From positions 558,869 to 622,868 of the forward strand of contig JBAZNP010000001.1 of assembly GCA_041649155.1 (NCBI GenBank): 64,000 nt of DNA, read 5' to 3'. Each line of letters begins with the position of its first letter. The first letter of the stretch is position 1. A model generated the notes under the pieces. The model ran no database searches, was not told where the DNA came from, and saw only the letters and a program-made list of their open reading frames with translations. This document shows positions 642-53,513 of this stretch, piece after piece. This DNA comes from Patescibacteria group bacterium (GTDB lineage Bacteria > Patescibacteriota > UBA1384 > XYA2-FULL-43-10 > 1-14-0-10-43-13). Both the position numbers and the translations under genes were made by a program.

Positions 642-1892
642 CTAATGTGTTGCGCAAGTTATGCATGGATCATATGCTCTGATCAGCATTTCAATTGTCT
701 TATTTCTTTCTTCTTTATTTAAATCTTTAATAATCGGTCCCAAGCTTTTTATGCTGAGCTCCATCGTGGCCAAGTTTTGTACTGTTGGTGTGATAATATC
801 ACACTCTATAATGAAGCCGTCTTTATCCAGTTTGTAGTAATGAAAAAGTGTCCCTCTTGGTGCCTCGCAGGCTCCAACTCCGGAACTAAAACCATTTGGT
901 AGCTTTACTGGTTCTTTTTTATCTATGCCGTTTTCTATAAAATATTTAACTAACTTATTTGATTCTACTGCAAAGTAATAATTTTCAATTGCCTGCGCCA
1001 TAACATTGTCAAAAGGATTATCAAAGTCTTCAATGATCTCTAATTCGTTTAACAACCGATGAACTTCTTCGCCCATAAACTGTCTTCCTAAATTCATTCT
1101 GGCCATTGCTCCCACCATCATTTCGTAACCTTTGAGTGTGGCAAATTTGGCCCTGGTGTATGGTCTTAATTCTTCATTCAGGTAATGACGGTAATTTTTA
1201 GCTGGAAATTCTTTGCCTTTTGAATTTGCAATGTCGCCATCATAAAAGGAATAATCTTTGCGATTATGCAGAGCACTATAAATTACTTTTTGGCTGACTT
1301 TTGGATATGTAAAACTCTTGAAAAGAAGAACGGTTTCTCTAGCGGTTTCAATGATTTCTGTTGATTTTTCTAATAATTTTTTTAAATCGTCTTTTGACGG
1401 GTAGCTTTTGAATCCGCCTGGTACGTTTGCAATTGGATGGACTGCCCTTCCTCCGATCGTATCTAAAATAGAATCGGCATATTGCTTTAATGAGATTGCC
1501 TTTTTAAATATTTCTGGATGATTTTTTTGCAATTCAAAAGATGAAGAAAGACCATAAAAATCAGGCAACACTAAAAGATATAAATGTAACGAATGACTCT
1601 GGATCATCTGTCCGCAGAGCATTAATTTTCTTAATCTATTAGTTTGCTCCGTGGGAATGATGCCGCAAGCTGCTTCTATGCCTTTTGTGGCGGTGACGTT
1701 GTGAATAGTGGGGCAGATGCCGCAAATTCTGGATGTGATTATTGGTGCTTCGTAGTATTTTCGACCTAATAAAATTTTCTCAACAAAACGATCGTTTTCT
1801 AGTCCGATAATTTGGGCCTTGTCGACTTGTCCGTTTCTCAGGTGGGCATAAAACGCGGCATGTCCTTCAATTTTTGGTACAGCTTCTGACAT
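642..1892 (-). CDS. [NiFe]-hydrogenase large (alpha) subunit, group 3 (sulfhydrogenase/F420-non-reducing type)
   Basis: N-terminal RICGICP (RxCGxC) and C-terminal DPCITCATH (DPCxxCxxH) Ni-Fe ligand motifs. 416 aa. Last gene of a 4-gene minus-strand cluster. Confidence 0.9.
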   Translation of the reverse strand: MSEAVPKIEGHAAFYAHLRNGQVDKAQIIGLENDRFVEKILLGRKYYEAPIITSRICGICPTIHNVTATKGIEAACGIIPTEQTNRLRKLMLCGQMIQSHSLHLYLLVLPDFYGLSSSFELQKNHPEIFKKAISLKQYADSILDTIGGRAVHPIANVPGGFKSYPSKDDLKKLLEKSTEIIETARETVLLFKSFTYPKVSQKVIYSALHNRKDYSFYDGDIANSKGKEFPAKNYRHYLNEELRPYTRAKFATLKGYEMMVGAMARMNLGRQFMGEEVHRLLNELEIIEDFDNPFDNVMAQAIENYYFAVESNKLVKYFIENGIDKKEPVKLPNGFSSGVGACEAPRGTLFHYYKLDKDGFIIECDIITPTVQNLATMELSIKSLGPIIKDLNKEERNKTIEMLIRAYDPCITCATH

Positions 1893-2671: not shown

Positions 2672-3478
2672 TTATTTGCCCAATTCTCCTTTAATTTTAT
2701 CAAATCGGAATACTGGTCCATCTTCACAGACTAAATATTTTCCAATGTTGCAATGCTGACAAATACCAATTCCACATTCCATTCTTCTCTCAAAAGAAAT
2801 GTAAACATTTTCTTCGGGAAGCCCTTTTTTAAATAAGACTTCATTACAATACGGGATCATGATTTCCGGTCCGCACATTAAAGCGACTGTTTTTTTGTTG
2901 TCGAAATTAATTTTTTCAAGTGCTTCTGTTATCATTCCGCGATCACCCCAAAAGTCTTTGCTTGAATGTTCAACCATTACTTTTAAAACATCGATTTTAT
3001 TTTGTAGTTTTTTTAATTCATCCTTAAATATAACATGATGATCTGTTCTGAAGCCGGCAACTAAATAAATTTTTTTGAACTCGGTTTTGTACCTTATTAA
3101 ATTTAGCAAAAGTGGTTTAAGAGGAACGAGTCCCATACCGCCGGCAATTAAAATTATGTTTTTGCCTATTAGTTTTGAGATGGGCCAGCCATTTCCGTAT
3201 GGTCCTCGCACGTTTAGAAAATCGCCCGGACTTAATTCTACTATTTTATTTGTTGTGCCGCCGGCTGCTCTTACGCAAATATCAAATGACTTCTTTTGGT
3301 CCGGATCGGAACAGATAGCGAGGGTTGCCTCTCCATAATGGTCGATTGCGACCTGAACAAACTGCCCCGGGTTGAATTTGATATGACCTTTGAGTGAAAA
3401 TAAAAAAGTTTCCGGAGCAACCTCTTCTTTGGCTACAATTTCATATTTTTGGTAGGCAAAGCCTCTATCGTTTTTCAT
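2672..3478 (-). CDS. Hydrogenase gamma subunit: FAD/NAD(P)-binding oxidoreductase with C-terminal 2Fe-2S (PyrK/sulfite reductase B-like)
   Basis: Flavodoxin-reductase-like fold signatures (FNPGQFVQV, GGMGLVP) and C-terminal CGIGICQHCN cluster. Position inside the hydrogenase cluster. Confidence 0.8.
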   Translation of the reverse strand: MKNDRGFAYQKYEIVAKEEVAPETFLFSLKGHIKFNPGQFVQVAIDHYGEATLAICSDPDQKKSFDICVRAAGGTTNKIVELSPGDFLNVRGPYGNGWPISKLIGKNIILIAGGMGLVPLKPLLLNLIRYKTEFKKIYLVAGFRTDHHVIFKDELKKLQNKIDVLKVMVEHSSKDFWGDRGMITEALEKINFDNKKTVALMCGPEIMIPYCNEVLFKKGLPEENVYISFERRMECGIGICQHCNIGKYLVCEDGPVFRFDKIKGELGK

Positions 3479-3579
3479 AATTTATATAGATACAAATAAC
3501 AAGATATAATTAATAATTCCTAAATCCTAATGTCAAAATGATTTGAAAATTTGGAATTTAGATTTTGTAATTTAATTGG

Positions 3580-4701
3580 TTATTGTTTCTCGTCTTTTGT
3601 TTCTTTTTCGCTGTCTTGTTCTATTAATGATTCCAAAATATTTTTCATATTTAAGTGAGCTGGGCAGGCTTCAATACATCGGCCACATCCGGTGCAGAGA
3701 AAGCGTTTGTTTTTGTGATATGATCTTACAAATTTGTGATGATACCAGTTATAAAGGCGATCGACATTTTTTGGTCTGAAATCATAATGATTTTGAATTT
3801 CAGAGAAACGTTTTGCAAAGCACGAATCCCAATTTAAGCATTGCTTACTTTCTCCTGTTAATTCATTTTTGAAGTCCTGTCTTGTGCAGAAGCAAAGGGG
3901 ACATACTGTGGAACAGGCGCCGCAACCGAAACAATTTTCTGAAATTTTATCCCAAAATTCTATATGTTTTTCTTTATTATCGATTATTTTAGAAATATTT
4001 TGTTCTGCAAAAGTTTTCTGGTTTGGTTTTATCTCACTTATCTGCAATTTTTTTTGTGACTGTTTTATGCCATTTTTCTTTAAAATTGCCTCCCCTCTTT
4101 TATTGCCGGAAAAAATGGCGTATTCGTTTTTTTCTTCCTGAACGTGTAAATCAAAAGGTGCCAATTTATTCGTTCCTGTCAAATCGCAAAAGCAATTTTC
4201 GTTTGGAAAGCATTCACTGGAAAATATTAAAATATTTTCTCTTTTGGGCAAGATTTTAGTGTCTGTAAATTCTTCCAATAGGTAATGCAGGGCCCAGACA
4301 TCGCAATTATTTAGACCGATTAGAGCAATTTTATTTGAGGAGTGAAGCGATCGAGAACTATTTCCGTTATTCCCGATCTCCAATTTGTCATTCCCGCCCC
4401 TTACTTTGTCATTCCCGCCCCGATGATTTATCGGGGTAAACATCCGGCGGGAATCTACTATTAGTGGATCACCGACTGGATCGGGGATGACAGAGGTAGC
4501 GTTCGGTTCCAAGAGGTTTGGAAATAAAATTTTCTTGAAAGGAATTATCGGCTTTTTATGACCAAGTTTTAAATCTGATGAGCTATTGAGCGCATCAAAA
4601 ACCAGCTTCCCGTCTTTTAACTGGGTGCCGTAAACTGTGTGAGTTTTTTTAATATAATCAATTAACTGATTTAATTGATGAATGGTTATTTGCGATTCCA
4701 A
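3580..4701 (-). CDS. Hydrogenase beta subunit, 4Fe-4S ferredoxin-domain protein, carrying an in-frame repeat-derived insertion
   Basis: Two Cys clusters: CFGCGACSTVCPLCFC and CTGCGRCIEACP. First gene of the minus-strand cluster. Residues ...INHRGGNDKVRGGNDKLEIGNNGNSS... are encoded by MITE-like repeat sequence at ~4383-4460. Confidence 0.75.
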   Translation of the reverse strand: MESQITIHQLNQLIDYIKKTHTVYGTQLKDGKLVFDALNSSSDLKLGHKKPIIPFKKILFPNLLEPNATSVIPDPVGDPLIVDSRRMFTPINHRGGNDKVRGGNDKLEIGNNGNSSRSLHSSNKIALIGLNNCDVWALHYLLEEFTDTKILPKRENILIFSSECFPNENCFCDLTGTNKLAPFDLHVQEEKNEYAIFSGNKRGEAILKKNGIKQSQKKLQISEIKPNQKTFAEQNISKIIDNKEKHIEFWDKISENCFGCGACSTVCPLCFCTRQDFKNELTGESKQCLNWDSCFAKRFSEIQNHYDFRPKNVDRLYNWYHHKFVRSYHKNKRFLCTGCGRCIEACPAHLNMKNILESLIEQDSEKETKDEKQ

Positions 4702-6030: not shown

Positions 6031-6046
6031 TCTGGAAATTTCAATT

Positions 6047-6115
6047 GTCATTCCAGACTTGATCTGGAATCTATATAAATAGTAACTGGATCCTGAATCA
6101 AGTTCAGGATGACGC
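6047..6115. mobile_element. MITE-like element (GTCATTCCAGACTTGATCTGGAAT-CTATATAAATAGTAACTGG-ATCCTGAATCAAGTTCAGGATGAC) directly upstream of fba
   Basis: Two perfect 8-bp-stem hairpins with an AT-rich TATATAAAT spacer. Termini GTCAT/ATGAC are inverted. Confidence 0.8.
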
Positions 6116-6960: not shown

Positions 6961-7082
6961 GTCATCCCGAGCAGAGTGTAACGGAGTCGAGAGATCTTGT
7001 GATAGTTAATTCATTAAAAGATTTCCCTGCCTGCCGGCAGGCAGGTCCGCCCCTTCGACAAAGCTCAGGGAGTCGAAATGAC
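6961..7082. mobile_element. MITE-like element, long variant in inverse orientation, with nested 20-bp palindrome (7026-7045)
   Basis: GTCATCCCGAGCAGAGTGTAACGGAGTCGAGAGATC...[CCTGCCTGCCGGCAGGCAGG]...CTTCGACAAAGCTCAGGGAGTCGAAATGAC. Halves are reverse complements of those at 11306-11410. Confidence 0.75.
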
Positions 7083-9937: not shown

Positions 9938-10032
9938 ATATCGGATTTTTTTTGCTAAGCTAATTAGGTCAGAATCAAAAATTATGAATCTGGAATAATG
10001 AATTTTAATAATAAATTGTTTGGCATCTAATA

Positions 10033-10077
10033 GGATCCTGAAACAAGTTCAGGATGACACTATTAGTTTGTCATGAC
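10033..10077. mobile_element. Partial MITE-like element (GGATCCTGAAACAAGTTCAGGATGAC...GTCATGAC) immediately upstream of tig
   Basis: Second-hairpin half of the 6047-6115 type. Confidence 0.55.
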
Positions 10078-12729: not shown

Positions 12730-12801
12730 TAAATCAAAAATTCTAATGTCTAATTTCAAATTATTCTAAACAAGCACCAGCCAATAAGGTAATGGTTCAC
12801 T

Positions 12802-12870
12802 GTTATCCCAGACTTGATCTGGGATCCATATAAATAATTACTGGATCCTCGGGTCAAGCCTGAGGATGAC
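12802..12870. mobile_element. MITE-like element upstream of clpP
   Basis: GTTATCCCAGACTTGATCTGGGATCCATATAAATAATTACTGGATCCTCGGGTCAAGCCTGAGGATGAC. Confidence 0.75.
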
Positions 12871-13687: not shown

Positions 13688-14284
13688 ATGGGAGGGGTTG
13701 TGAAAATTAAATCAAAAGCATTTACATTAGTTGAACTTTTGATAGTAATGGCCATTATCGGAGTGCTTGCTGCAATCGTTGTAGTCAACTTAACCAGGTC
13801 ACAAAAAATATCAAGGGATGCACGAAGAGTTGCTGATTTAGATACAATAAATACTGCTTTAATGCTGCATTATGATTCAAAGAAAAAGGTGATTACCAGT
13901 GCATGCGATAATAACACTTATACAGTTAATGATTTGAATTTAAACCATTTCTTGGTTGATGAGGGGTATTTACCGAGTATGCCGAAAGACCCCAAATATC
14001 CAACATCTGGCAATTATTATGAGCAATATTTATATGTTTCAACAACATATTCTACCCACTATTATCCTCATGTAGCAAGTTCTTGCGGGGACTATAGTGA
14101 TAGTGTGGCATTTAGCTGCAGCGCTTCTACTGGAAGTCCTTGTAGCAATTACTTCCTTTATGCCAACTTAGAAACTGATAAATACCAAAATATTACAACT
14201 GAATCATTATGGACAGCTAATCACATGTCTTCTTTAAGTTTCAATGATAAAAATTTATATTATATGTTAGGACCAAATAAGTAA
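13688..14284 (+). CDS. Type IV pilin-like protein (prepilin-type N-terminal cleavage/methylation domain)
   Basis: KAFTLVELLIVMAIIGVLAAIVVV class-III signal peptide (G/FTLxE) followed by a hydrophobic helix. Confidence 0.8.
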   Translation: MGGVVKIKSKAFTLVELLIVMAIIGVLAAIVVVNLTRSQKISRDARRVADLDTINTALMLHYDSKKKVITSACDNNTYTVNDLNLNHFLVDEGYLPSMPKDPKYPTSGNYYEQYLYVSTTYSTHYYPHVASSCGDYSDSVAFSCSASTGSPCSNYFLYANLETDKYQNITTESLWTANHMSSLSFNDKNLYYMLGPNK

Positions 14285-14303
14285 TTAGGGTAAATAATTA
14301 AGT

Positions 14304-15260
14304 ATGAACATTCAAGAAATTTATAACTTAGCAATTCAGATTGGCATCGACAATGATCCAAGGGGTCGAGCCAAAGTTGAAAAAATTCTTTCAAAAAGGA
14401 AGGAAGAGTATTTGGAATTGCCGAAAGAGAAGAAGAAAGATTTTGATATTTCAAAATTGGAAAGTCCTTATTCTGACTCAGGAATTCATTTTGGAGACAC
14501 TAAAAAGGAAATTAAAACCATTCTTGTCGGCATTGACATTGGTGTTGAGGAAATTTTGCTGGCAAAAGAACTAGAAAGGCAAGGCAAGAAAATTGACTTG
14601 ATTTTTGCTCACCATCCGGAAGGCAAAGCCTTGACTAATTTGCATGAGGTTATGGATATTCAAACCGATGTTTTGGCTCGTGCTGGAATGCCGGAAAACA
14701 TTGCCGAAGGTGTGCTGGCCGACAGGATTAGGGAAGTTTCGCGAACAATTGCGCCGATCAATCATTACAAACCGGTTGATGCTGCAAAATTATTAAATAT
14801 GCCTTTATTAAATATTCATACACCAGCCGATAACTGTGTTTGGAATTTTGTTGATAAATATATAGAAGAAAAAAAGCCTGAAACTGTTGGCGAAGTGGTT
14901 GAGACTCTAAAAGAAATTCCAGAATACGCAGAGGCAGCCAAATTAAATACTGGCCCAACTATTTTCGCCGGCAGCGAGAAAGGGAGAGCGGGAAAAATTG
15001 TGGTTTCAGGCATGACTGGTGGTACCGGCGGCAGCGAGAAGATTTTTGAACGCATGAGTCACTATGGAATTGGAACCGAAATTGGCATGCATTTAGGAGA
15101 AAAACATCGGGAGGAAGCAGCCAAGCATTATATTAACATTGTAATTGCCGGTCATATTGCTTCTGATTCTTTGGGTCTTAATATTATTATGGACGAGCTC
15201 GAGAAAAAAGGGATTGAGATTATCCCATGTTCGGGATATATACGACATTCGAGAATATAA
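14304..15260 (+). CDS. Nif3-like dinuclear metal centre protein (YbgI/DUF34 family)
   Basis: FAHHPEG, NIHTPADN and AGHIASDSLG motifs match the HHP / HTxxD / GHYxSE pattern of the Nif3 family. Confidence 0.55.
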   Translation: MNIQEIYNLAIQIGIDNDPRGRAKVEKILSKRKEEYLELPKEKKKDFDISKLESPYSDSGIHFGDTKKEIKTILVGIDIGVEEILLAKELERQGKKIDLIFAHHPEGKALTNLHEVMDIQTDVLARAGMPENIAEGVLADRIREVSRTIAPINHYKPVDAAKLLNMPLLNIHTPADNCVWNFVDKYIEEKKPETVGEVVETLKEIPEYAEAAKLNTGPTIFAGSEKGRAGKIVVSGMTGGTGGSEKIFERMSHYGIGTEIGMHLGEKHREEAAKHYINIVIAGHIASDSLGLNIIMDELEKKGIEIIPCSGYIRHSRI

Positions 15261-15291
15261 ATATAATAAATATAAAAGTACTAGGAGGGAT

Positions 15292-15903
15292 ATGCAATTT
15301 TTTAAAAGAAAAAAAGCCTTTACTTTAATAGAGATTTTAGTAGTTGTATCTATTATTGGTATATTAGCTTCTGTCGTTACAGTTAACTTGATTTATGCCC
15401 AGAAGAAGTCGAGAAATACAAAAAGAATCGGAGATTTGGAGGCAATGAACAATGCCATAAAACAATATTACGCTACAGAAAATAACTTGCCTGATAATCG
15501 CGCTAGTAGCGGAGCCTGTATTGTAGGGTCAAGCTATGGAGGCGGAGTTTGCCTTGGCGAATTAATAAGTAATTACATGGCTGTGCTTCCAACTGATCCA
15601 TTAAATCAGCCTGGCAATAAATATTCTTATCATAATTATGGCACTTACGTTACGATATTTGCGAGTCTTGAGCCACAACAATATGGTCCTTTTCCATATG
15701 GCTGGAACTGTAGCGGTGACAACTCGTCTGGCGGTTGGTGGGCTGGCATGGAATGTGATAGTATAGGAGATTCAACGGAAAGAAAAATATGTACCGATGC
15801 TCTCATGGACAATAACCCAACAACAACATATACTCCTCCAGAAGGAATAACATTAAATGTGCCGGGAGATACCAAAAAGTATTGCAATGGATTTAAACTA
15901 TAA
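15292..15903 (+). CDS. Type IV pilin-like protein
   Basis: KKAFTLIEILVVVSIIGILASVV prepilin N-terminus. AGGAGGGA RBS before ATG 15292; the tracked 15145 start overlaps the upstream gene. Confidence 0.8.
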   Translation: MQFFKRKKAFTLIEILVVVSIIGILASVVTVNLIYAQKKSRNTKRIGDLEAMNNAIKQYYATENNLPDNRASSGACIVGSSYGGGVCLGELISNYMAVLPTDPLNQPGNKYSYHNYGTYVTIFASLEPQQYGPFPYGWNCSGDNSSGGWWAGMECDSIGDSTERKICTDALMDNNPTTTYTPPEGITLNVPGDTKKYCNGFKL

Positions 15904-15908
15904 TACTT

Positions 15909-16502
15909 ATGTTTATATTTAATTTATTAAAAAGAAAACAGAGGAAAGGGTTCACACTAGTTGAACTTCTAGTTGTTACGGCGATTATTGCAATGCTGGC
16001 ATTAATTGTGGTTATTAATGTGAGTCAATCGCAAAAACGTTCACGTGATTCGAGAAGAAAAGCAGATCTTAATTCAATTTTAACAGCTATGCTGTTTTAT
16101 TATGATGATCATAATACTCTTTCATTAGCTGGGTGTAATTGTGGATATAACAATGAAGGGAGAGGTTGGTTTAATTATGTGGGTGGCGGGTCTTACGCTA
16201 CTTCAATTGCGGAATATCTTAAATCAAGTAACTATCTAAGCAGTACTGTCATCGACCCGTCAGGCAAGACCTCTTGTATGCCAGGCGCTGGTGGTAGTTG
16301 TGATACTGAAGATGGCGGACCGTATATGCTGCATTATGATCTTGGTACAGGAAAAAAGATTACTGTTTATGCTAAAATGGAATCGACGAAATCGGTGGTT
16401 GATGTTAACAACAGTTGCAATTCCAGTCCTGCTATTCCACCGGCAGGGACTCTATATTGTACTGACTACTATAGGAATTATTCTTTAACTGCTACAAAAT
16501 GA
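15909..16502 (+). CDS. Type IV pilin-like protein
   Basis: KGFTLVELLVVTAIIAMLALIVV prepilin N-terminus. Confidence 0.8.
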   Translation: MFIFNLLKRKQRKGFTLVELLVVTAIIAMLALIVVINVSQSQKRSRDSRRKADLNSILTAMLFYYDDHNTLSLAGCNCGYNNEGRGWFNYVGGGSYATSIAEYLKSSNYLSSTVIDPSGKTSCMPGAGGSCDTEDGGPYMLHYDLGTGKKITVYAKMESTKSVVDVNNSCNSSPAIPPAGTLYCTDYYRNYSLTATK

Positions 16503-17092
16503 GTACTATAACATATCGAGGAGGACGAGTGGATAGTAAAAGAGCTTTCACATTAATCGAATTATTGGTTGTGGTTGCTATTATTGGTATTTTGGCGACT
16601 ATTGTGTCATTAAACATTGTTGGCGCACAGGAAAAATCAAAAGTTGCCAAGGCGGTGGAGCAAATAAATACAGTCGAAAAAGCAGTGAAAATGTATTACG
16701 CTGATGTTTATGATTGGCCGCCAACTTGTAGGTCTGTTGATTATCATGCAGACTGTAATTCAACAGAAGACCCATTTTTGTTAACTCCGACCGGTGTTGA
16801 TAGATGGAATGGTCCCTATATAGACGAAGGTATTTATAACATGAAGCATCCTTGGGGGGGAGCCGTAGAATATTGGAAGGATACAACTGCAGGTAAATTG
16901 AAGGTTGTTTTAGACGATGATGCACCAGCAAAAGCTTCAGTTGATAATAGCGGAAATATCCCCGATTCGGCATTGCTAAAAATTGATCAGTTAATTGATG
17001 ATGGCAATTTACATACAGGATCTGCATTGCAGTCAACTGATGGTGGCGCAGGGTACATCGGCGAGATAGTGCATTCTTTCGTTTCCTTGTAA
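16499..17092 (+). CDS. Type IV pilin-like protein
   Basis: RAFTLIELLVVVAIIGILATIV prepilin N-terminus. 4-nt overlap with the upstream gene. Confidence 0.8.
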   Translation: MSTITYRGGRVDSKRAFTLIELLVVVAIIGILATIVSLNIVGAQEKSKVAKAVEQINTVEKAVKMYYADVYDWPPTCRSVDYHADCNSTEDPFLLTPTGVDRWNGPYIDEGIYNMKHPWGGAVEYWKDTTAGKLKVVLDDDAPAKASVDNSGNIPDSALLKIDQLIDDGNLHTGSALQSTDGGAGYIGEIVHSFVSL

Positions 17093-17184
17093 GAGTTTTA
17101 TTGGCAAACATTGATTATTTGTAATATGCTTAAAACAATAGTGTGGGTTATCTGAATACCTAAACAGATCTATAAGGAGGCGGG

Positions 17185-17730
17185 GTGAAAAAAATAAAAG
17201 ATTGCAACCTTGAGCAAAGTCGAATGGGCTTTACTCTGATTGAACTATTGGTTGTAGTGGTTATTATTGGTGTTTTAGCCACAGTTGTAGTGGTTAGCCT
17301 AACCAGCGCTCAGGAAAAATCAAGAGATGCAAAGAGAATCAGTGATCTAAAACAAATTGACCTGGCGATTGATTCATTCTATACGGACTATCAACATCTT
17401 CCCGGTGGGTCATCGATGGGCACCTTCAGCCTTTATGTTATAAACAACAATACTTACACTGGAGATACCTCAAGCTGTAGTGCTGGTGGTTTATTGCCTT
17501 ATCTTCCTGACGTGTGTAGGGATTATGGACCCAAACATACTACTGCCACCGCTGATGCTTACAAGGACGTTTATTTATATGGTTTCGCTGATGCCAAGAA
17601 AGACACTTACCATCTTGGTGCTCAATTCGAATCTTCTAATAATCAAGGTAATACATTCACTTATTGTAGTTCGAGTTCAAATTGTTCAGCCACTGATACA
17701 AGTTATACTGGTTATTATCTAATAAAGTAA
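17185..17730 (+). CDS. Type IV pilin-like protein
   Basis: MGFTLIELLVVVVIIGVLATVVVV prepilin N-terminus. GTG start after AAGGAGG. Confidence 0.8.
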   Translation: MKKIKDCNLEQSRMGFTLIELLVVVVIIGVLATVVVVSLTSAQEKSRDAKRISDLKQIDLAIDSFYTDYQHLPGGSSMGTFSLYVINNNTYTGDTSSCSAGGLLPYLPDVCRDYGPKHTTATADAYKDVYLYGFADAKKDTYHLGAQFESSNNQGNTFTYCSSSSNCSATDTSYTGYYLIK

Positions 17731-17771
17731 TCTAATATTGTTAGTCGGACAATGCCAAAAAAAGGAAAGAA

Positions 17772-18299
17772 ATGAAATATAAAAAAGGGTTTACTCTGAT
17801 AGAGATTTTGGTCGTCGTCGCTATTATTGGAGTTTTAGCCACAGTTGTGATGGTAAACGTAAGAAGAAACATAGCCAAAGCTAACTATACAAAAACTCTG
17901 AGCGACATGACGGCGATTGCTAAGTCAGTCAATCTTTATACTGCCGAACACAATGTAACAAAACCAAAGGAATGGAGCGGGTATAGAAATTATTCTCATG
18001 CTACTGATGGCGCTCACACATTTTATAATAGTACGGATTCTTCTGACTCTAATTACAATGATTTTTTTGCGGACAAATTAGATAACGTGAGACCCGTGCC
18101 ACCATGTGAAGGTTCTGCTTATTCTTATTACAACAGTTCGACTTATTCTTTTATCATATATTGGACACCGAATTCTGGAGGTCATAGTAATGTTATGTTG
18201 CCAGTGGAGGGTGTTATGCCTTCAGGTTATGTTAATATTAAAAACAAAACTGAAAAAAGCATTTCATGTAAAGAAACACGGGACTCAGATTTTCAATAA
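17772..18299 (+). CDS. Type IV pilin-like protein
   Basis: KGFTLIEILVVVAIIGVLATVV prepilin N-terminus. Confidence 0.8.
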   Translation: MKYKKGFTLIEILVVVAIIGVLATVVMVNVRRNIAKANYTKTLSDMTAIAKSVNLYTAEHNVTKPKEWSGYRNYSHATDGAHTFYNSTDSSDSNYNDFFADKLDNVRPVPPCEGSAYSYYNSSTYSFIIYWTPNSGGHSNVMLPVEGVMPSGYVNIKNKTEKSISCKETRDSDFQ

Positions 18300-18582: not shown

Positions 18583-20045
<1,463 letters not shown>

Positions 20046-20170
20046 TAAGGAGAATCGTCCATCAATTCAATGATGGTTCGATACGGTCGATCGTCTGATA
20101 TTCGTTCTTGAATATCGAGACGCAAATCCTATGCTAAACCTTAGCATAGGTGCGTACTTTATCACTATTT

Positions 20171-20245
20171 AGTTGCAAAAGAGCTAAAAACAACAGACCT
20201 GCCTGCCGGCAGGCAGGTTACAGATCGTACGAATAATACGAATGC
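20171..20245 (+). repeat. Direct repeat copy 1, flanking the 16S-23S interval (TAAAAACAACAGA + 20-bp palindrome + TACAGATCGTACGAATAATACGAAT)
   Basis: About 85% identical to 41788-41866 in the same orientation. Confidence 0.8.
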
Positions 20246-20565
20246 TGTATGAAAAAGCCACTCGAAAGAGTGATTTTTTGTTATAATAAAAACAGAGGTG
20301 ATGATTATGCGGAAGTTAAGAAGACAGAATATGGGGGAAAGAAGGGGTTTTGCTACTCTATTGACTCCTCTGCGCGATAGAGTGGATAATAGCCGAAAAC
20401 CACATTCTAGAGGTATTCGCTTCAGGAGAAGTTTACTTCATGGTCATCATGTGCGAAGCGGCAGTACTCTCGGCTCGGGCGTCTCTTCTCGCCCGAGCTT
20501 ATTTTTGCAAAATTTAACGTTCTTCGAGTTTAAATTAATTCTTAGGATAAAAGATATAGCAGTCT

Positions 20566-20603
20566 ATCTTAGGTTTACATACGGCCGTTGCAAAATCTAA
20601 GAT
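20566..20603. repeat. 38-bp repeat copy A: ATCTTAG-GTTTACATACGGCCGTTGCAAAAT-CTAAGAT
   Basis: 7-bp inverted arms around a 24-nt core. Identical copy at 21188-21225. Near-identical copy at 52548-52585, with 6 substitutions in the first 10 nt of the core. Confidence 0.8.
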
Positions 20604-20621
20604 AGGCACTAGAATATAAAT

Positions 20622-21194
20622 ATGGTTAGATATTCAAAAAAATATGGAGATATGCTTGAAAATCCATTTACTTGGGGGCTGGAAATTGCATTGGGATATC
20701 TTTTAAAATTGGGAAAAAATTATGTCTATAAAGCACGTGACAGCAAAGCGCTATATGAAGAGTTAAACAACGCTAGCGATCATCAGCTTTCGCCTCGCCA
20801 AGTTTCAAATATGATTTATCAGTTGAAAAATAGTAATTATATTGAAATTTGTGACGAAGAAGGGGAAAAATCAATTAAGTTAACCAATAAAGCAAAAATA
20901 AAATTAGTTGAAAAAATAATTGAAGAGGAACCCAAAGATAACAAATATCGTTTTGTCTCTTTTGATATCCCTGAACGATTACATCATAGGCGTGATAAGT
21001 TTCGTCGAACAATAAAAAGGATGGGATTTCGTCAAATCCAACAGAGTTTATGGGTTACGGATAAAAATATAGGGGAAATGGTCGATATTGCAGCCCAGGA
21101 ATTTGAAGTTGAAGAGTATGTCGCCTACATTGTTTCTGAAAAATCAAACATTGATCTGCACATTAAGAAAACATTGCATGTGGAGCTATCTTAG
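20622..21194 (+). CDS. PaaX-like regulator: N-terminal winged-helix plus C-terminal Cas2-fold domain
   Basis: C-terminal YRFVSFDIPERLHHRRDKFRRTIKRMGFRQIQQSLWV matches the YDI...R+K..K.L...G.R.Q.SV(F/W) Cas2/PaaX_C signature. N-terminal region is wHTH-like. Flanked by 38-bp repeat copies A and B; the stop codon TAG lies inside copy B. Confidence 0.6.
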   Translation: MVRYSKKYGDMLENPFTWGLEIALGYLLKLGKNYVYKARDSKALYEELNNASDHQLSPRQVSNMIYQLKNSNYIEICDEEGEKSIKLTNKAKIKLVEKIIEEEPKDNKYRFVSFDIPERLHHRRDKFRRTIKRMGFRQIQQSLWVTDKNIGEMVDIAAQEFEVEEYVAYIVSEKSNIDLHIKKTLHVELS

Positions 21195-21225
21195 GTTTAC
21201 ATACGGCCGTTGCAAAATCTAAGAT
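21188..21225. repeat. 38-bp repeat copy B
   Basis: Identical to copy A. Overlaps the stop of the PaaX-like gene. Confidence 0.8.
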
Positions 21226-21239
21226 GCATTAAAGATAAT

Positions 21240-21656
21240 ATGGAAAAAAATGATGGTCTAGCTTATACATTTATGGTGGCGGGAGTTGTGTTGCATCAGG
21301 ATGGTAAATACTTGCTTGTTCAGGAAAAAAAGCCTGTATGTTATGGCAAATGGAATTTGCCAGCCGGTAAAGTTGATAAAGGTTATTCAATTGAAGAGAC
21401 AGTGATCAAAGAGGCTAAAGAAGAATCTGGTTTTGATGTTGAGCTCATAAGAAAAATTGGTGTTTATCAGGATAAAGTTGATGAGCCTGTTAAGCATGCT
21501 TTTGAAGCAAAAATTATTGGTGGAGAACTTTCTGTGCCGGAAAATGAAATTTTAGATGCGAAATGGTTTTCTTTTCAAGAAATATTAAATATGAAAAATG
21601 AGCTGAGGGTTGATTGCGTGTGGCAGGCAATTGAAAAAGCAGAGGAATTAAGATAA
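21240..21656 (+). CDS. NUDIX hydrolase
   Basis: Nudix box LPAGKVDKGYSIEETVIKEAKEESGF (GX5EX7REUXEEXGU). Start set at ATG 21240; the tracked 21210 is a TTG inside repeat copy B. Confidence 0.85.
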   Translation: MEKNDGLAYTFMVAGVVLHQDGKYLLVQEKKPVCYGKWNLPAGKVDKGYSIEETVIKEAKEESGFDVELIRKIGVYQDKVDEPVKHAFEAKIIGGELSVPENEILDAKWFSFQEILNMKNELRVDCVWQAIEKAEELR

Positions 21657-27593: not shown

Positions 27594-27670
27594 TGGTGGG
27601 CGTACATGGACTCGAACCATGGACCTCGTCATTATCAGTGACGCGCTCTAACCAGCTGAGCTATACGCCC
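27594..27670 (-). tRNA. tRNA-Ile (anticodon GAU), CCA encoded
   Basis: Manual fold of the reverse complement: GGGCGTA acceptor stem, GCTCAGCTGGTTAGAGC D-arm, anticodon loop CTGATAA, T-arm CATGG-TTCGAGT-CCATG, 3' CCA. Confidence 0.85.
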
Positions 27671-34194: not shown

Positions 34195-34199
34195 ATCAT

Positions 34200-34287
34200 G
34201 TCATTCCGTACTTGATACGGAATCTATACAAATAGTTTCTGGATCCCAGATACAAGCCTGCCTACCGGCAGGCAGGTCTGGGATGAC
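34200..34287. mobile_element. MITE-like element (GTCATTCC...GGGATGAC) with nested 20-bp palindrome. Its 3' terminus supplies the ATG of the downstream pilin gene.
   Basis: GTCATTCCGTACTTGATACGGAATCTATACAAATAGTTTCTGGATCCCAGATACAAG-[GCCTGCCTACCGGCAGGCAGG]-TCTGGGATGAC. Confidence 0.75.
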
Positions 34288-36981: not shown

Positions 36982-37057
36982 TGGTGGACCTGAGGAGACT
37001 CGGACTCCTTACCTCAGCAATGCGAATGCTGCGCTCTACCAGATGAGCTACAGGCCC
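36982..37057 (-). tRNA. tRNA-Ala (anticodon CGC), CCA encoded
   Basis: Reverse complement GGGCCTGTAGCTCATCTGGTAGAGCGCAGCATTCGCATTGCTGAGGTAAGGAGTCCGAGTCTCCTCAGGTCCACCA. G3:U70 Ala identity pair. Anticodon loop TTCGCAT. Confidence 0.85.
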
Positions 37058-37973: not shown

Positions 37974-38049
37974 TGGTGGACCCGACAGGATTCGAACCTG
38001 CGACATCCTCGTTGCAAACGAGGCGCTCTACCAACTGAGCTACGGGCCC
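37974..38049 (-). tRNA. tRNA-Ala (anticodon UGC), CCA encoded
   Basis: Reverse complement GGGCCCGTAGCTCAGTTGGTAGAGCGCCTCGTTTGCAACGAGGATGTCGCAGGTTCGAATCCTGTCGGGTCCACCA. G3:U70 pair. Anticodon loop TTTGCAA. Confidence 0.9.
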
Positions 38050-40755: not shown

Positions 40756-40938
40756 TTAACGATTTTCCGATTTCTTGCCTTCTTCAATAAGCTCCTTGAC
40801 TCTTTGTCCGCCTTTGGTTCCAATCTCAGAATAGAAGCCTCGTCCATATCTCTGGCTCGTGGTTTTTCCGCCCTTCTTGCCACCTTTTCTGCCAGCTTCC
40901 TGTACGCTCATTTGACCCTTGTTATCTTTCATCTGCAT
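40756..40938 (-). CDS. KGG-repeat stress-induced protein (GsiB/YciG-like)
   Basis: MSVQEAGRKGGKKGGKTTSQRYGRGFYSEIGTKGG matches the KGG repeat. Confidence 0.65.
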   Translation of the reverse strand: MQMKDNKGQMSVQEAGRKGGKKGGKTTSQRYGRGFYSEIGTKGGQRVKELIEEGKKSENR

Positions 40939-40975
40939 TTAAAATTCACCTCTTTTCAATTATCCGTTTGAAAAT

Positions 40976-41245
40976 TTACCATTCGTCATATTCACTTTTG
41001 TTTTTTCCTTTGTTCCGTTTCTTATTTTCAGCTTTCTCTCCCTTTTTTATAAGATCCCGTACTTTTTGCCCGCCCTTAGTGCCTATCTCATGATAGAACT
41101 CCGGTCCGTATTCACGACTTGTGGCTCGACCTCCTTTAGTACCTATCTCATGATAGAACTCCGGTCCGTATTCACGACTTGTTGTCCGGCCGCCTTTTTG
41201 TCCTGCTTCCTGTACGGACATTTTAATCTTGCCTTTTTCTGCCAT
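40976..41245 (-). CDS. KGG-repeat stress-induced protein with internal 60-bp tandem duplication
   Basis: TSREYGPEFYHEIGTKGG appears twice, encoded by 41073-41132 and 41133-41192. Confidence 0.65.
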   Translation of the reverse strand: MAEKGKIKMSVQEAGQKGGRTTSREYGPEFYHEIGTKGGRATSREYGPEFYHEIGTKGGQKVRDLIKKGEKAENKKRNKGKNKSEYDEW

Positions 41246-41296
41246 TTTTATCCACCTTGTTCCTAATTAATTATTAAAATAATTAAGTCTAAAAAT

Positions 41297-41503
41297 TTAC
41301 ATGTTCTTGCTTCTTCCACGTCTCTTTCCTCCTTCGCTTTCTTTTCCTTTTTCGATAAGGTCCCTAACTCGGTGTCCGCCTTTAGTACCTATATCATGAT
41401 AAAATTCTGGTCCATGTTCTCGGCTTGTGGTTTGACCTCCTTTTTTGCCGGCCTCCTGTACTGTCATTTGGCCCTTTTTTCCTCGCATTTGCATAATCTT
41501 CAC
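41297..41503 (-). CDS. KGG-repeat stress-induced protein
   Basis: MTVQEAGKKGGQTTSREHGPEFYHDIGTKGGHRVRDL. Confidence 0.65.
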   Translation of the reverse strand: MKIMQMRGKKGQMTVQEAGKKGGQTTSREHGPEFYHDIGTKGGHRVRDLIEKGKESEGGKRRGRSKNM

Positions 41504-41633: not shown

Positions 41634-41788
41634 TTGACATCTTCAAAATAATTAGTTAAGATCTCTTTAGAAACTCTAAAAGAGGTCTATGGTCAATCAC
41701 TACACCAATGAGAGGGGGACAAGCGGATGAGATAAAATAGGGGTATTTTATTTTTTTATCTCAATTATCCGCTGCGGCGGTTTTTTTT
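41634..41788 (+). ncRNA. Candidate small RNA: TTGACA-17-TAAGAT promoter to CCGCTGCGGCGG-T8 terminator (~120 nt transcript)
   Basis: Consensus -35/-10 at 41634-41662. Internal hairpin GAGATAAAA...TTTTATCTC. Intrinsic terminator at 41769-41788. No ORF. Confidence 0.3.
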
Positions 41789-41866
41789 GTCGCAAAAAGC
41801 ATAAAAACAACAGACCTGCCTGCCGGTAGGCAGGTGACAAATCGTACAGATAATACAGATTACGAA
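41788..41866 (+). repeat. Direct repeat copy 2, flanking the 16S-23S interval (with nested palindrome)
   Basis: GCAAAAAGCATAAAAACAACAGA-CCTGCCTGCCGGTAGGCAGG-TGACAAATCGTACAGATAATACAGATTACGAAT. Compare 20171-20245. Confidence 0.8.
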
Positions 41867-42235
41867 TTGTACGAAATATCAGGATAGCAATTGTGAGATA
41901 GGGGCTCACAAGTTGAGATTCTATAGCGCACATTAACAATTAAATAACGCTTTATTAAATATTCAACCACATTTAATAAAGCAAAGAGCAAATATATAAC
42001 TTAAATAATAATATTTGTGTAATTTCAAATTTACCCAGTTAGATGGCGTAAGCTTATCTAACAGGGTGTATATCTTCCGATATAAAAAAATTTCTCAAAA
42101 CAAGTAATTAATATTTCATCCGCCATCTGGCGAGATGGAATCCAGTAATTGCTAGTCAAGATTCTAAGTCGGGCAGTGGGGCAGATACTCAGTAATGAGT
42201 TTTTGCCTTCACTATTCGACCTCTGGAAAAATAAT

Positions 42236-45062
<2,827 letters not shown>

Positions 45063-45293
45063 TATTATTTTTACAATCTTGACTAGTGATTACTGGGTTA
45101 TTCCAGTATTCTTCGAGCGTTTATGATACCGTTCATTGGCTTCCATCTCCTCACCCTTTCTTCGAAAGGATGAGGGACGATGCTGGTGCATCGGATCTAG
45201 CTCAATTTGTTTTCAAATGTGGATGTGGTTTTAGAATAAAGCCTCATCCTGTGTGAAAGCAAAATATTTGCTTTTAAAATTTAAAATAGTTTT

Positions 45294-45412
<119 letters not shown>

Positions 45413-51686: not shown

Positions 51687-51691
51687 ATATC

Positions 51692-51758
51692 GTCATCCCA
51701 GACTTGATCTGGGATCCAGTTACTATTTATATAGATTCCGTATCAAGTACGGAATGAC
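51692..51758. mobile_element. MITE-like element (GTCATCCCAGACTTGATCTGGGAT...TACGGAATGAC) directly upstream of recO
   Basis: Two 8-bp-stem hairpins separated by an AT-rich spacer (revcomp GGAATCTATATAAATAGTAACTGG), as at 6047-6115. Confidence 0.75.
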
Positions 51759-51769
51759 AGAGCGGAATC

Positions 51770-52507
51770 ATGAATATTCGAACAAGTGGGATAGTACTAA
51801 AGCGTATGAACTTTGGCGAAGCCGATCGGATTTTGACTATTTTTACTGAGCGGTTTGGCAAAGTTAAAGCTATCGCCCGAGGGGTTAGAAAAGGAAGGTC
51901 GAAATTGGCCGGCCATCTTGAACCATTTATGCTTTTAGATTTGCAACTTTATGAGGGTAAAACTTTTTATACTGTCACCGGTTCGGAAATTAAATCTGAT
52001 TTTTCAGAGATTCACACTGAGCTAAAAAAAACTTCTCAAGCCTTTTATCTAGCTGAATTAGTTGATAGATTTTTGCCCGATCATCAGGGATCAGATGAAG
52101 TTTTTAATCTTTTTTGCAGAGCTCTTCAATATCTGAATAAAAATGAGAAAAATTTATTTCTGCGAATCTTTGAGCTAAAAATTATTGAAGCTTCTGGCTT
52201 TTATCCGGAGCTTTATGAATGTGTACATTGCAAAAATAAATTAGAGGAAGAAAGTAATTTTTGGGATGCGGTTGAAGGCGGTGTAATTTGTGGTGATTGT
52301 CAGAAAAAATTTCATCATGGTAAGAAAATTTCAAACCAATTAATAAAATTATTACGCTTAATAGAGAAAAGCGATTTTTCAATTTTGGAAAAATTAAAAA
52401 TATCGAACGAGGTAGAAGAAGAAGCAGAAGAAATATTATCCACATACATCGCCTCGGTCTTGGAAAGAGAACTAAAAAGCAAAGGTTTTATGAAACTGGT
52501 AAACTAG
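51770..52507 (+). CDS. recO: DNA repair protein RecO
   Basis: N-terminal OB-fold (GIVLKRMNFGEADRILTIFTERFGKVKAIARG). C-terminal zinc site C-x2-C ... C-x2-C. Confidence 0.85.
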   Translation: MNIRTSGIVLKRMNFGEADRILTIFTERFGKVKAIARGVRKGRSKLAGHLEPFMLLDLQLYEGKTFYTVTGSEIKSDFSEIHTELKKTSQAFYLAELVDRFLPDHQGSDEVFNLFCRALQYLNKNEKNLFLRIFELKIIEASGFYPELYECVHCKNKLEEESNFWDAVEGGVICGDCQKKFHHGKKISNQLIKLLRLIEKSDFSILEKLKISNEVEEEAEEILSTYIASVLERELKSKGFMKLVN

Positions 52508-52547
52508 TTTTCATTTAAACTTATTTTAATCGTATATATGGATAATT

Positions 52548-52585
52548 ATCTTAGTATTCAATATGGCCGTTGCAAAATCTAAGAT
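52548..52585. repeat. 38-bp repeat copy C
   Basis: ATCTTAG-TATTCAATATGGCCGTTGCAAAAT-CTAAGAT. Compare copies A and B. Confidence 0.75.
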
Positions 52586-52679
52586 AGTTATTAACTGGTT
52601 ATTTTTAAATGTAATATGTAATAAAGAGAAGCGCCCCGATGGAAAATTCCATCGGGGCGCAACGGTTGTGGTGAGGGTG

Positions 52680-53513
52680 TTAGCCCTCTACAAACAGCAT
52701 GGCGCTGTTGCGGGGAGAGTAGATGGGGAAGCCGAGTTCTCGGCCTTTGCGGCGATACCACTGGTCAGAGGCGGCCCAAAGTTTGTTGTTAGGGTGAATC
52801 CAACTACATTCAGCATAAGGATCGATATCTGCTTTGCTGAATGATTTGACATTCATTTCGCTGGTTTCAACTTCGATTAAATATCGGATGCAATGATCAA
52901 GCTGAAAACCCCGAGTTCCCCATTCTGTTGGTTCTTTGGCATACTGGCGAAGGAACGATGGATTCTTGGGAATATTGACTCGTTCAAAGCTCTGTCCTGT
53001 GATGCATGGCCCCATCCAGATACTTATTTCGTTGTTTTTATCTGGCCATTCTTCAAAGAACTTCTGGATAACCCCAAAGGGAAGCTGGATTATTTCCGGC
53101 CACCCGACATGCATGTAGCCAATCCATCTGTCAGACCAAATGATGATGCAGGCGCAATCGCCGAGAAAGGTCTCGATCACAAATGGGAATGAACTGCCAG
53201 TTCTTTGGACGATTAAACCGTCGCAAGAAAAGACAATCGGCATAACATACTTGTCTTTTACGATTTCTACGATATTGTGTGATTCGTGAGCAAGCGATAC
53301 GTGACAAATAGGTCCGAAATTCCTGCCAAGTGTCTTTTCGATAACTTCTCTGCCAATATCGGCCGGCGTGTTCTTGTCCCCGATATAGCCTATTGGGAAC
53401 TTTTGAGTGGCTAGCGGGTACACGACTCTGAGTGATCGCTCGGCGTCGATATACCCAAAATCCTTGAACTGCTTTGACCCGAAAAGGGCCTCAAAATCAT
53501 ACTTATGCGGCAT
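52680..53513 (-). CDS. YfiH/PgeF-like (DUF152, laccase-domain/peptidoglycan-editing-factor family) protein, locally higher GC
   Basis: GDCACIII (cf. TADCLPVLL), MHVGWPE (cf. HAGWRG) and MGPCITGQSFE (cf. LGPCIGPCCYEV) sit in the correct order. GC is visibly elevated versus neighbours. Perfect 12-bp GC hairpin terminator at 52631-52660. Confidence 0.5.
   Translation of the reverse strand: MPHKYDFEALFGSKQFKDFGYIDAERSLRVVYPLATQKFPIGYIGDKNTPADIGREVIEKTLGRNFGPICHVSLAHESHNIVEIVKDKYVMPIVFSCDGLIVQRTGSSFPFVIETFLGDCACIIIWSDRWIGYMHVGWPEIIQLPFGVIQKFFEEWPDKNNEISIWMGPCITGQSFERVNIPKNPSFLRQYAKEPTEWGTRGFQLDHCIRYLIEVETSEMNVKSFSKADIDPYAECSWIHPNNKLWAASDQWYRRKGRELGFPIYSPRNSAMLFVEG

Follow-up and report, generated by a model that had tools for sequence, protein, structure and literature searches.

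Why should a small gene in a patescibacterial genome be enclosed by two copies of one long palindrome? The question arises from a stretch of 64,000 nucleotides (hereafter the window) of contig JBAZNP010000001.1 from a Patescibacteria group bacterium (assembly GCA_041649155.1, positions 558,869 to 622,868), in which direct copies of a 38-bp imperfect palindrome flank an open reading frame (ORF) of 190 aa. We find that the ORF product, a "mini-PaaX", has two domains, a predicted winged helix and then the Cas2-like PaaX_M, but no PaaX_C, and that bracketing by two direct 38-40-bp palindrome copies is a rule of its family. The arrangement is probably that of a PaaX-type autorepressor with paired private operators. 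Gene regulation in the Patescibacteria (candidate phyla radiation, CPR) is nearly uncharted, and little is known of it because most of these bacteria are uncultured.

A small PaaX relative between two copies of a palindrome

The repeat, CTATCTTAGGTTTACATACGGCCGTTGCAAAATCTAAGAT over 40 nt, occurs in two identical copies at 20564-20603 and 21186-21225 with zero mismatches; dinucleotide-preserving shuffles give 0 expected matches for such repeats. Its 38-nt part (20566-20603 and 21188-21225) lies in direct orientation on either side of the 190-aa ORF, so that the exact bracketing described in the original prediction holds to the base. A third copy at 52548-52585 matches at 33/38 bases (85% identity over 40 nt, 52546-52585). 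The spacings among the three copies are 622 and 31,360 nt, and they are the only three true sites for the pattern ATCTTAG-N24-CTAAGAT in the window. The features discussed below are as follows.

20566 to 20603, + strand: predicted upstream operator (O-up), an exact repeat copy in which the family profile marks the half-sites; layout ATCTTAG, GTTTACAT, core ACGGCCGT, TGCAAAAT, CTAAGAT, with half-sites at 20566-20572 and 20597-20603 and the core at 20581-20588
20588 to 20615, + strand: predicted regulator promoter (promoter scan), with -35 TTGCAA at 20588-20593, a 16-nt spacer and -10 TAGAAT at 20610-20615
20622 to 21194, + strand: regulator gene, 190 aa, locus tag WC536_03045, with a 100% identical product that is identical also to P0001
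21188 to 21225, + strand: predicted downstream operator (O-dn), of the same sequence as O-up, with the core at 21203-21210
21240 to 21656, + strand: NUDIX hydrolase gene (Pfam NUDIX, E 2e-19)
52548 to 52585, + strand: predicted solo operator; layout ATCTTAG, TATTCAAT, ATGGCCGT, TGCAAAAT, CTAAGAT

O-up ends 18 nt before the ATG of the regulator gene. At the other end, the TAG stop codon (21192-21194) is formed by the last three bases of the left half-site of O-dn, and the NUDIX gene begins with its ATG at 21240, 14 nt past the repeat, as had been noted from the sequence. Immediately upstream of the locus are a 16S rRNA gene (18585-20044), not linked to the other rRNA genes, and the terminator hairpin of that gene (20472-20499).

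Pfam places PaaX_M (PF20803, "PaaX central Cas2-like domain") at residues 103-175 of the regulator (E 2e-16, 60.3 bits against a cut-off of 24), and PF20803 is present in 54/54 homologues listed. PaaX_C has no Pfam match, the protein stopping at residue 190. The earlier assignment to a Cas2-fold or PaaX-like protein is thus borne out by Pfam and Foldseek, while the domain it named, PaaX_C, has to be replaced by PaaX_M. Among related models, NCBIfam PaaX gives 19.9 bits against a cut-off of 264, Pfam CRISPR_Cas2 gives 23.8 bits, equal to its cut-off, over just 44 residues, and TIGR01573 gives 21.2 bits, under its cut-off of 24.5. PADLOC Cas2 models match with E values from 3e-6 to 8e-3, these weak Cas2 matches lying at the first 40 residues of the PaaX_M domain, and some sources label homologues "Cas2". 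The PHROGs collection gave no informative match for the regulator.

In an AlphaFold2 model built from 34 homologues (mean predicted local distance difference test score, pLDDT, of 74, but close to 90 for the C-terminal domain), a winged helix precedes a beta-alpha-beta-beta-alpha-beta domain. The original prediction had called for a structural comparison with PaaX and Cas2, and the top PDB matches of the model in Foldseek are PaaX structures: E. coli W PaaX (8a39; E 2.8e-4 over 184 columns), a Jannaschia PaaX-like protein (3l09) and Rv0674 (3kfw). Many winged-helix regulators match too. By sequence the PDB gave no meaningful match, and PaaX was reached through the fold search alone. Across the family alignment, a variable N-terminal half precedes a strongly conserved C-terminal half with the invariant pattern SFDIPE...R..FR..IK..G....Q.SLW, in which the FDIPE motif of the Cas2-like domain is kept and its Asp is invariant.

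The regulator is not PaaX proper but a truncated relative and not an equivalog of it, because it has no PaaX_C, no paa context and an NCBIfam PaaX score far below the cut-off. No paa genes, the phenylacetate catabolic genes that PaaX controls with phenylacetyl-CoA as inducer, were found among the families listed (top 25 of 68 for the 57 window ORFs; top 25 of 111 for 116 homologue neighbours). Nor is the regulator Cas2 in the CRISPR sense.

A family-wide arrangement with locus-specific half-sites

Eighty further loci were taken by protein similarity alone, and at each the 130 nt upstream of the gene were compared with the region around and past its stop codon. A repeat shared by the upstream and downstream flanks scored above the 99th percentile of mismatched pairs at 47/73 homologous loci (64%), whereas neighbouring genes were bracketed in 1 of 93 cases (1%) by the same test. 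Under a strict criterion, a CGNNCG core plus arm symmetry, both copies were present in 50 of the 79 loci. Four distant members (L090-L093; profile E about 1e-18 to 1e-22) are bracketed as well. In L001, an 87% orthologue, the same two sites lie at matching places. The two paralogues of the source genome are about 41-48% identical; the paralogue in that genome (L003) is bracketed by another, 36-nt repeat, and GGCAAATATCGTCGATCGTGAGTTTTCAGC is the repeat of the paralogue WC536_03640. The distance between the two copies, centre to centre, is 600-789 bp in all loci.

Clustered at 50% identity, the family comprises 62 clusters at E <= 1e-30 and 1,208 at E <= 1e-10. A literature search on PaaX with Cas2, Patescibacteria or CPR returned no paper describing this family or architecture. 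We would class it as a PaaX-type repressor-operator system of a new form, minimal and self-bracketed, with private specificities and a wide distribution in Patescibacteria-type genomes.

A position profile of 44 non-redundant loci, aligned on the core, divides the element into three zones. The core has 8 bp and is conserved as a type, reading ACGATCGT, ACGGCCGT, TCGATCGA, TCGTACGA or ACGACCGT. Positions 5-8 from the core are A/T-rich and conserved across the 44 loci. Positions 9-15 carry 0.03-0.41 bit between loci, i.e. they are locus-specific, yet within a locus they show mirror symmetry of 75-98% and an identity of 80-100% between the two copies. Past position 16 the signal drops to background. 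The element therefore measures 38-40 bp and ends in 7-bp locus-specific outer half-sites, which in the window are ATCTTAG and CTAAGAT.

The half-sites are also the constrained part of the element within a lineage. Five sites (three in the window, two in L001) differ from copy 1 by 12 substitutions, of which 0 fall at the 14 half-site positions and all lie in the inner arms or at one core base; by our own arithmetic, the chance of this is (24/38)^12, about 0.004. Between loci, half-site distance follows the distance between N-terminal halves when the C-terminal half is controlled for (partial Mantel test, 0/2000 permutations), and half-site divergence is almost saturated at 30-50% N-terminal divergence. 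L003 and L078 illustrate this at a single position. Their flanking Mfd and DprA are 87% and 91% identical, the regulators 63% (55% in the N-terminal half, 71% in the C-terminal half), and the half-sites differ, a pattern that we read as rapid co-divergence of regulator and site in place.

Some positions in the genome recur. Positional orthologues stand after the 16S gene in the window, L001 and L009/L010, and between Mfd and DprA in L003, L078, L005 and L006; both positions persist across genomes although the regulators are only 59-87% identical. In a neighbour-joining tree, the Mfd-DprA occupants L005/L006 fall beside the clade of the window and L003/L078 far off, and the RecO-adjacent L085 and L074 are likewise far apart. 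Lineages at one position have therefore changed places, by exchange or by differential loss.

The solo third copy keeps both half-sites intact, its changes being confined to the inner-left arm and one core base. It sits in the convergent spacer between RecO (51770-52507, + strand) and a PgeF/YfiH-like gene (52680-53513, - strand), starting 40 nt past the RecO stop. The original prediction correctly reported this copy, but its statement that the copy abuts the 3' end of the YfiH-like gene is loose: the stop codon of that gene is 94 nt away, with its terminator hairpin (52631-52660) in between. In the window the order is NTP-transferase, RecO, site; in L085 it is NTP-transferase, RecO and a full operator-gene-operator module, and in L074 and L086 a regulator gene likewise follows RecO. 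Since perfect half-sites for the window's own regulator are kept, the solo site looks functional and not decaying.

Predicted promoter overlap, proposed autorepression and competing explanations

The upstream copy overlaps a promoter-like sequence. The -35 element TTGCAA is fused to the operator core, and the right half-site falls within the 16-nt spacer. The -10 element predicted by the promoter scan stops 6 nt short of the ATG, so that the mRNA would be leaderless. The modal group of loci has the same geometry, with 35-38 nt from the core centre to the ATG, the -35 fused to the core and TAnnnT at the same 6-nt distance from the start codon. Of 67 loci, 32 carry a TANNNT hexamer 4-9 nt upstream of the ATG, compared with 15% of background windows; another 16 loci have a Shine-Dalgarno-like leader and an element farther off. 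In some loci, L005, L028 and L023 among them, the inner right arm of the upstream copy is swapped for TTGCAA, while the downstream copy is a near-perfect palindrome. This is what one would expect to see if a leaderless gene were autorepressed through occlusion of its promoter.

An internal promoter-like match, TTTACA-18-TAAGAT, was rejected, as its -35 is not conserved in the orthologous copies and TTGCAA/TAGAAT fits the family geometry better. In L001 (about 2200-2310), the upstream operator is separated from the start codon by an insert resembling a miniature inverted-repeat transposable element (MITE); the predicted -10 is part of an apparent 9-bp duplication, TAGAATATA, that accompanies the insert.

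In the mechanism that we propose, a minimal PaaX-family repressor would bind the 38-bp palindrome as a dimer. Its two winged helices would recognise the outer half-sites of 7 bp, at a centre-to-centre distance of about 31 bp, while the Cas2-like dimer would span the A/T-rich inner arms and the CG-rich core, placing the winged helices about three helical turns apart. Occupancy of O-up would block RNA polymerase at the gene's own leaderless promoter and produce negative autoregulation, as for PaaX at Px. O-dn would serve as a second operator, most likely auxiliary (looping or cooperative binding) and/or a protein roadblock limiting read-through into the NUDIX gene, and the copy at 52548, in the spacer 3' of RecO, would give the protein one more place to bind. 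Because half-site sequences are private to each member, no cross-talk would be expected between paralogues of the same genome. The original prediction had offered palindromic operators for this winged-helix regulator as one of its two explanations, and the PaaX-like profile and fold matches, the 7-N24-7 geometry, the constrained half-sites that track the protein and the promoter overlap all argue for it.

Known systems offer partial parallels. In the Cas1-Cas2 complex, Cas2 is a dimer along duplex DNA; the regulator shares with it a homologous ferredoxin-like domain with the beta1 motif "hydrophobic-x-(Y/F)-D-I" and a basic helix next to it. Unlike Cas2, the regulator is fused to a winged helix, has no cas1, array or leader, and is itself encoded between the repeats, which are 600-790 bp apart. 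The closest model is PaaX of E. coli and Pseudomonas. According to a review of the phenylacetate pathway (PMC9493321), the operator of E. coli PaaX reads TGATTC(N27)GAATCA, and the repressor acts at its own promoter, where it hinders RNA polymerase. In PaaX a winged helix, which is predicted for the regulator too, precedes PaaX_M, in keeping with the best structural matches of the regulator. The PaaX operator and the putative operator of the window (7-N24-7, 38 bp) share an unusually wide spacing, with short inverted half-sites about 24-27 bp apart and 38-39 bp in total, and in both systems a site overlaps the regulator's own promoter (here predicted). Unlike PaaX, the regulator has 190 aa instead of about 300, keeps an FDIPE motif of the Cas2 type, has no paa genes nearby and lacks PaaX_C, to which the sensing of phenylacetyl-CoA is ascribed. 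Two putative operators enclose its gene, the operator centre is a conserved CG-rich 8 bp, and it belongs to a large family with private half-sites, seen here mostly in Patescibacteria. The looping systems lac O1/O2 and gal OE/OI, and the CodY and CcpA roadblocks relieved by Mfd, also combine, for one repressor, an operator at the promoter with an auxiliary one downstream of or inside the regulated gene; two identical operators placed in this way would be a plausible basis for cooperative repression or a transcription block. Unlike in those systems, the second operator here would lie exactly at the 3' end of the repressor's own gene, family-wide.

Several observations weigh against the autorepressor reading. 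The Pfam model of the PaaX N-terminal domain does not match the regulator, and the winged helix-turn-helix of the AlphaFold2 model (three helices and a beta-hairpin wing, residues 15-87) has moderate confidence, with pLDDT 52-78. Many elements are palindromic without mismatch over their full length, and in L093 the inner-arm differences between the copies are mirrored in the opposite arm. Neither the full-length palindromes nor the mirrored changes would be needed by a protein in contact with just the core and the outer 7 bp, so hairpin or cruciform formation, or self-correction of the palindrome, may contribute to the full-length symmetry. Sites away from promoters are a further difficulty. 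The solo copy lies at a gene 3' end and not at a promoter, the scan finding no promoter-like -10 after it, and the third copies in L027, L053 and L076 are at gene 3' ends away from promoters. The next gene is convergent in 21/52 loci, where the downstream copy is no promoter operator. In the window, the promoter-like match TTGCAA-18-GATAAT at O-dn runs right up to the NUDIX ATG, an awkward arrangement for a start site. The auxiliary-operator or roadblock role of O-dn is the weakest part of the model and amounts to a guess.

Downstream copies mostly begin within a few nt of the stop codon, regardless of the orientation of the next gene. That O-dn is simply the operator of the next gene was dismissed as a general rule because of the 21/52 convergent downstream genes. 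In this window O-dn may also control the NUDIX gene, which is probably co-regulated, via O-dn or by read-through from the regulator's promoter.

The other explanation of the original prediction, att-like boundaries of a small gene cassette, would make the module exchangeable or mobile. The palindromes would then represent recombination ends of the att type or a long duplication of the target, the solo copy would be a scar or a site left empty, and the protein would take part in excision or integration. We consider this unlikely. It is true that bracketing belongs to the gene and not to its neighbours, the downstream copy keeping its place at the stop codon when a convergent gene follows, and that the solo site lies exactly where L085, L074 and L086 have the full module after RecO. 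The Mfd-DprA position holds two distant lineages (L005/L006 and L003/L078), as does the RecO position (L085, L074); in L027 and L053 three copies occur, the third bracketing a second small gene; and the Cas2-like domain retains FDIPE with its invariant Asp. Integron attC cassettes, too, are short ORFs delimited by imperfect palindromes whose symmetry is conserved over sequence, with occasional three-site arrays. In integrons, however, each cassette brings its own attC, whereas here both flanking sites are identical and all "cassettes" encode one protein family. No integrase, recombinase or attI was seen in the listed families (top 25 each, for the window and the neighbours), no systematic recombinase search having been made beside these genes, and neither Pfam nor Foldseek reveals an integrase, transposase or HUH/Tyr transposase fold or motif in the regulator. 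No relatives were found in 2.9 million viral contigs, and there is no evidence of recent movement. Identical multi-copy cassettes were not seen, the source-genome paralogues being as divergent as noted above, and the repeat is low-copy, with 3 copies in the window and 2 in a related genome. The positional orthologues at 16S and Mfd-DprA are stable, L003 and L078 show divergence in place and no swap of unrelated DNA, and homologous replacement in naturally competent cells can also switch lineages at one position. The presence of a -35 in some upstream copies and its absence downstream is not explained by simple duplication. Active mobility thus finds no support, given the lack of viral copies, the low copy number and the conserved positions, while the neighbour-independent bracketing and the solo site remain on the side of the cassette. 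In a bolder version, the bracketed units would be cassettes that arose by integration into a solo palindrome with whole-site duplication, like CRISPR spacer insertion; the protein would act on repeat DNA by marking or processing the site that belongs to it, the copy after RecO would be empty or excised, and the family would be a living, Cas1-free relative of the Cas2 ancestor. We give this version very little credence.

Explanations that detach the palindromes from transcriptional control fare no better. That they are a generic structural repeat unrelated to the protein (a repetitive extragenic palindromic (REP)-like element, a terminator or stabiliser hairpin, or a small RNA) is improbable, even though their single strands, like those of any palindrome, fold well (-17 kcal/mol for copy 1, z = -4.6; -32.8 kcal/mol for the downstream copy of L005), the downstream and solo copies stand at gene 3' ends, and the window holds other intergenic repeat families. 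Bracketing is specific to the gene family, and the upstream copies precede the predicted start site. The arm mismatches show no excess of G-T wobbles (17 G-T, 28 A-C, 106 other), and symmetry peaks in the outer 7 bp and weakens towards the middle, whereas a stable stem would need the reverse. In the listed sequences a T-run usually does not follow the downstream copies, and Rfam gave no match at the repeats, only rRNAs and tRNAs reaching gathering scores in the window. An RNA hairpin or terminator was rejected on the kinds of mismatch, the form of the symmetry profile and the missing T-runs, and REP elements on copy number and on the restriction of the bracketing to these genes. The outcome that the original prediction had set against itself, a common REP-type repeat, is not seen in the sequences scanned: besides the three copies in the 64-kb window, the scanned sequence GGCCGTTGCANAANCTAAGAT has 2 copies in the species-representative genome set, all in the L001 genome, and zero in JGI metagenome contigs, counts that cover the window and these two collections, neither of which includes the 798,787-bp source contig. 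REPtrons (RAYT) and IS200-type elements also carry a small gene flanked by palindromes that co-vary with the protein, in a unit of about 660 bp. REPs, however, are inverted around RAYT and dispersed in tens to hundreds of copies, whereas here the copies are direct and few and the protein has no HUH/Tyr fold. Equally improbable, in our view, are chromosome-structuring or centromere-like sites, with the protein as an insulator, segregation or replication-related factor exerting no transcriptional control. Like many parS-type sites, the palindromes flank the gene of the protein itself, the winged helix resembles the centromere-binding proteins AspA and TubR in Foldseek, and several sites are off promoters, but these winged-helix matches are generic, the upstream copies lie precisely over promoter elements, and no partner ATPase or GTPase gene is adjacent. 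A CRISPR-related origin, with the locus as a decayed repeat-spacer-repeat unit or the protein as an orphan Cas2 accompanied by repeats of CRISPR type, has a negligible chance of being right. Several Cas2 models match weakly (E 3e-6 to 5e-5), the 38-bp length and partial palindromy resemble CRISPR repeats, and the name "Cas2" has been given to some homologues; the "spacer", however, would be the 584-bp gene itself, the spacing of the copies stays within 600-789 bp in all loci, and the protein, with its predicted DNA-binding winged helix, is a far better match to PaaX than to Cas2. As first reported, no CRISPR array-like repeat family was found in the window (64 kb, 57 ORFs), nor was cas1 or any other cas gene or Cas protein. 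A functional CRISPR locus is effectively refuted by these absences, and an evolutionary link alone remains.

If the PaaX-type autorepressor is the correct reading, a gene between two operators of its own would be one rule that predicts the DNA site of each family member, and more than 50 predicted protein-operator pairs would be readable from the collected loci. They would form a natural library of orthogonal pairs, each with a variable winged helix and a variable 7-bp half-site on a constant Cas2-like domain and core, useful for studies of specificity evolution and as parts for synthetic circuits. The layout would also offer a structural rationale for the oddly long spacing of PaaX operators, with the Cas2-like dimer as the spacer. 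More Cas2-like sequence is preserved in these regulators than in PaaX, a point of interest for how the Cas2 and PaaX families are related.

Neighbouring genes and other features of the window

NUDIX is the commonest neighbour family of these regulators (6/116 neighbours); Mfd, RmuC, IMS, RecO and UPF0102 occur 2-4 times each among the 116, as raw counts. By locus, the neighbours are distributed as follows.

Mfd/DprA/TopA: L003, L005, L006, L078
RecO: L074, L085, L086
DinB-like: L012, L059
UPF0102/YraN: L025, L041
Ligase-like: L080
NUDIX: window, L001, L010, L054, L061

The occurrence of NUDIX, Mfd, DprA, RecO, DinB, YraN and LigA beside the regulators hints at control of DNA repair or uptake genes. 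At L089 (998-1261, - strand) a small ORF is the sole neighbour gene with strong flanking direct repeats; the flanks (860-1000 and 1270-1310) resemble tRNA fragments, and the ORF may be a small insertion beside tRNA genes. In L053, a 400-nt stretch (3230-3630) between a zinc-ribbon ORF and the third palindrome is apparently GC-rich, has no convincing ORF and may be an RNA gene.

The window contains further repeat families. A MITE-like double-hairpin family of about 70 nt, to which the L001 insert belongs, is intergenic (6044-6113, 12799-12868, 34197-34266 and 51689-51758; also 10028-10058 and 54773-54803). The GC-rich palindrome CCTGCCTGCCGGCAGGCAGG has five window copies, at 7026, 20198, 34257, 41815 and 57345. 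Two of these lie inside a 72-nt repeat (20168-20239 and 41785-41856), just after 16S and just before 23S, and this repeat possibly represents rRNA processing or termination signals. The rRNA genes themselves are unlinked, with 16S at 18585-20044 and 23S-5S (42232-45069 and 45296-45411) 22 kb off, and protein genes between. The tRNA genes are at 27594-27670, 36982-37057 and 37974-38049, with tRNA-Ile and tRNA-Ala on the opposite strand between the rRNA genes.

Among the protein-coding genes, nine have a region with the pilin-type N-terminal methylation motif (positions 13708-17844, 32850, 34294, 53774 and 55912), and six of these pass Pfam N_methyl, which suggests a large type IV pilin-like set. 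An ORF at 642-1892 (- strand) matches the nickel-dependent hydrogenase large subunit (PF00374, E 9e-34). PADLOC run on the window proteins gave mad3 (E 1e-35) for one protein and mad8 (4e-10) for another, with weaker matches to PDC-M43B and AriA; the mad3 and mad8 matches may reflect a defence-system component in the window. The region 40879-41477 (- strand) has internal repeats of about 43-94 nt at spacings of 60, 246 and 310 nt and looks like a repetitive coding region.

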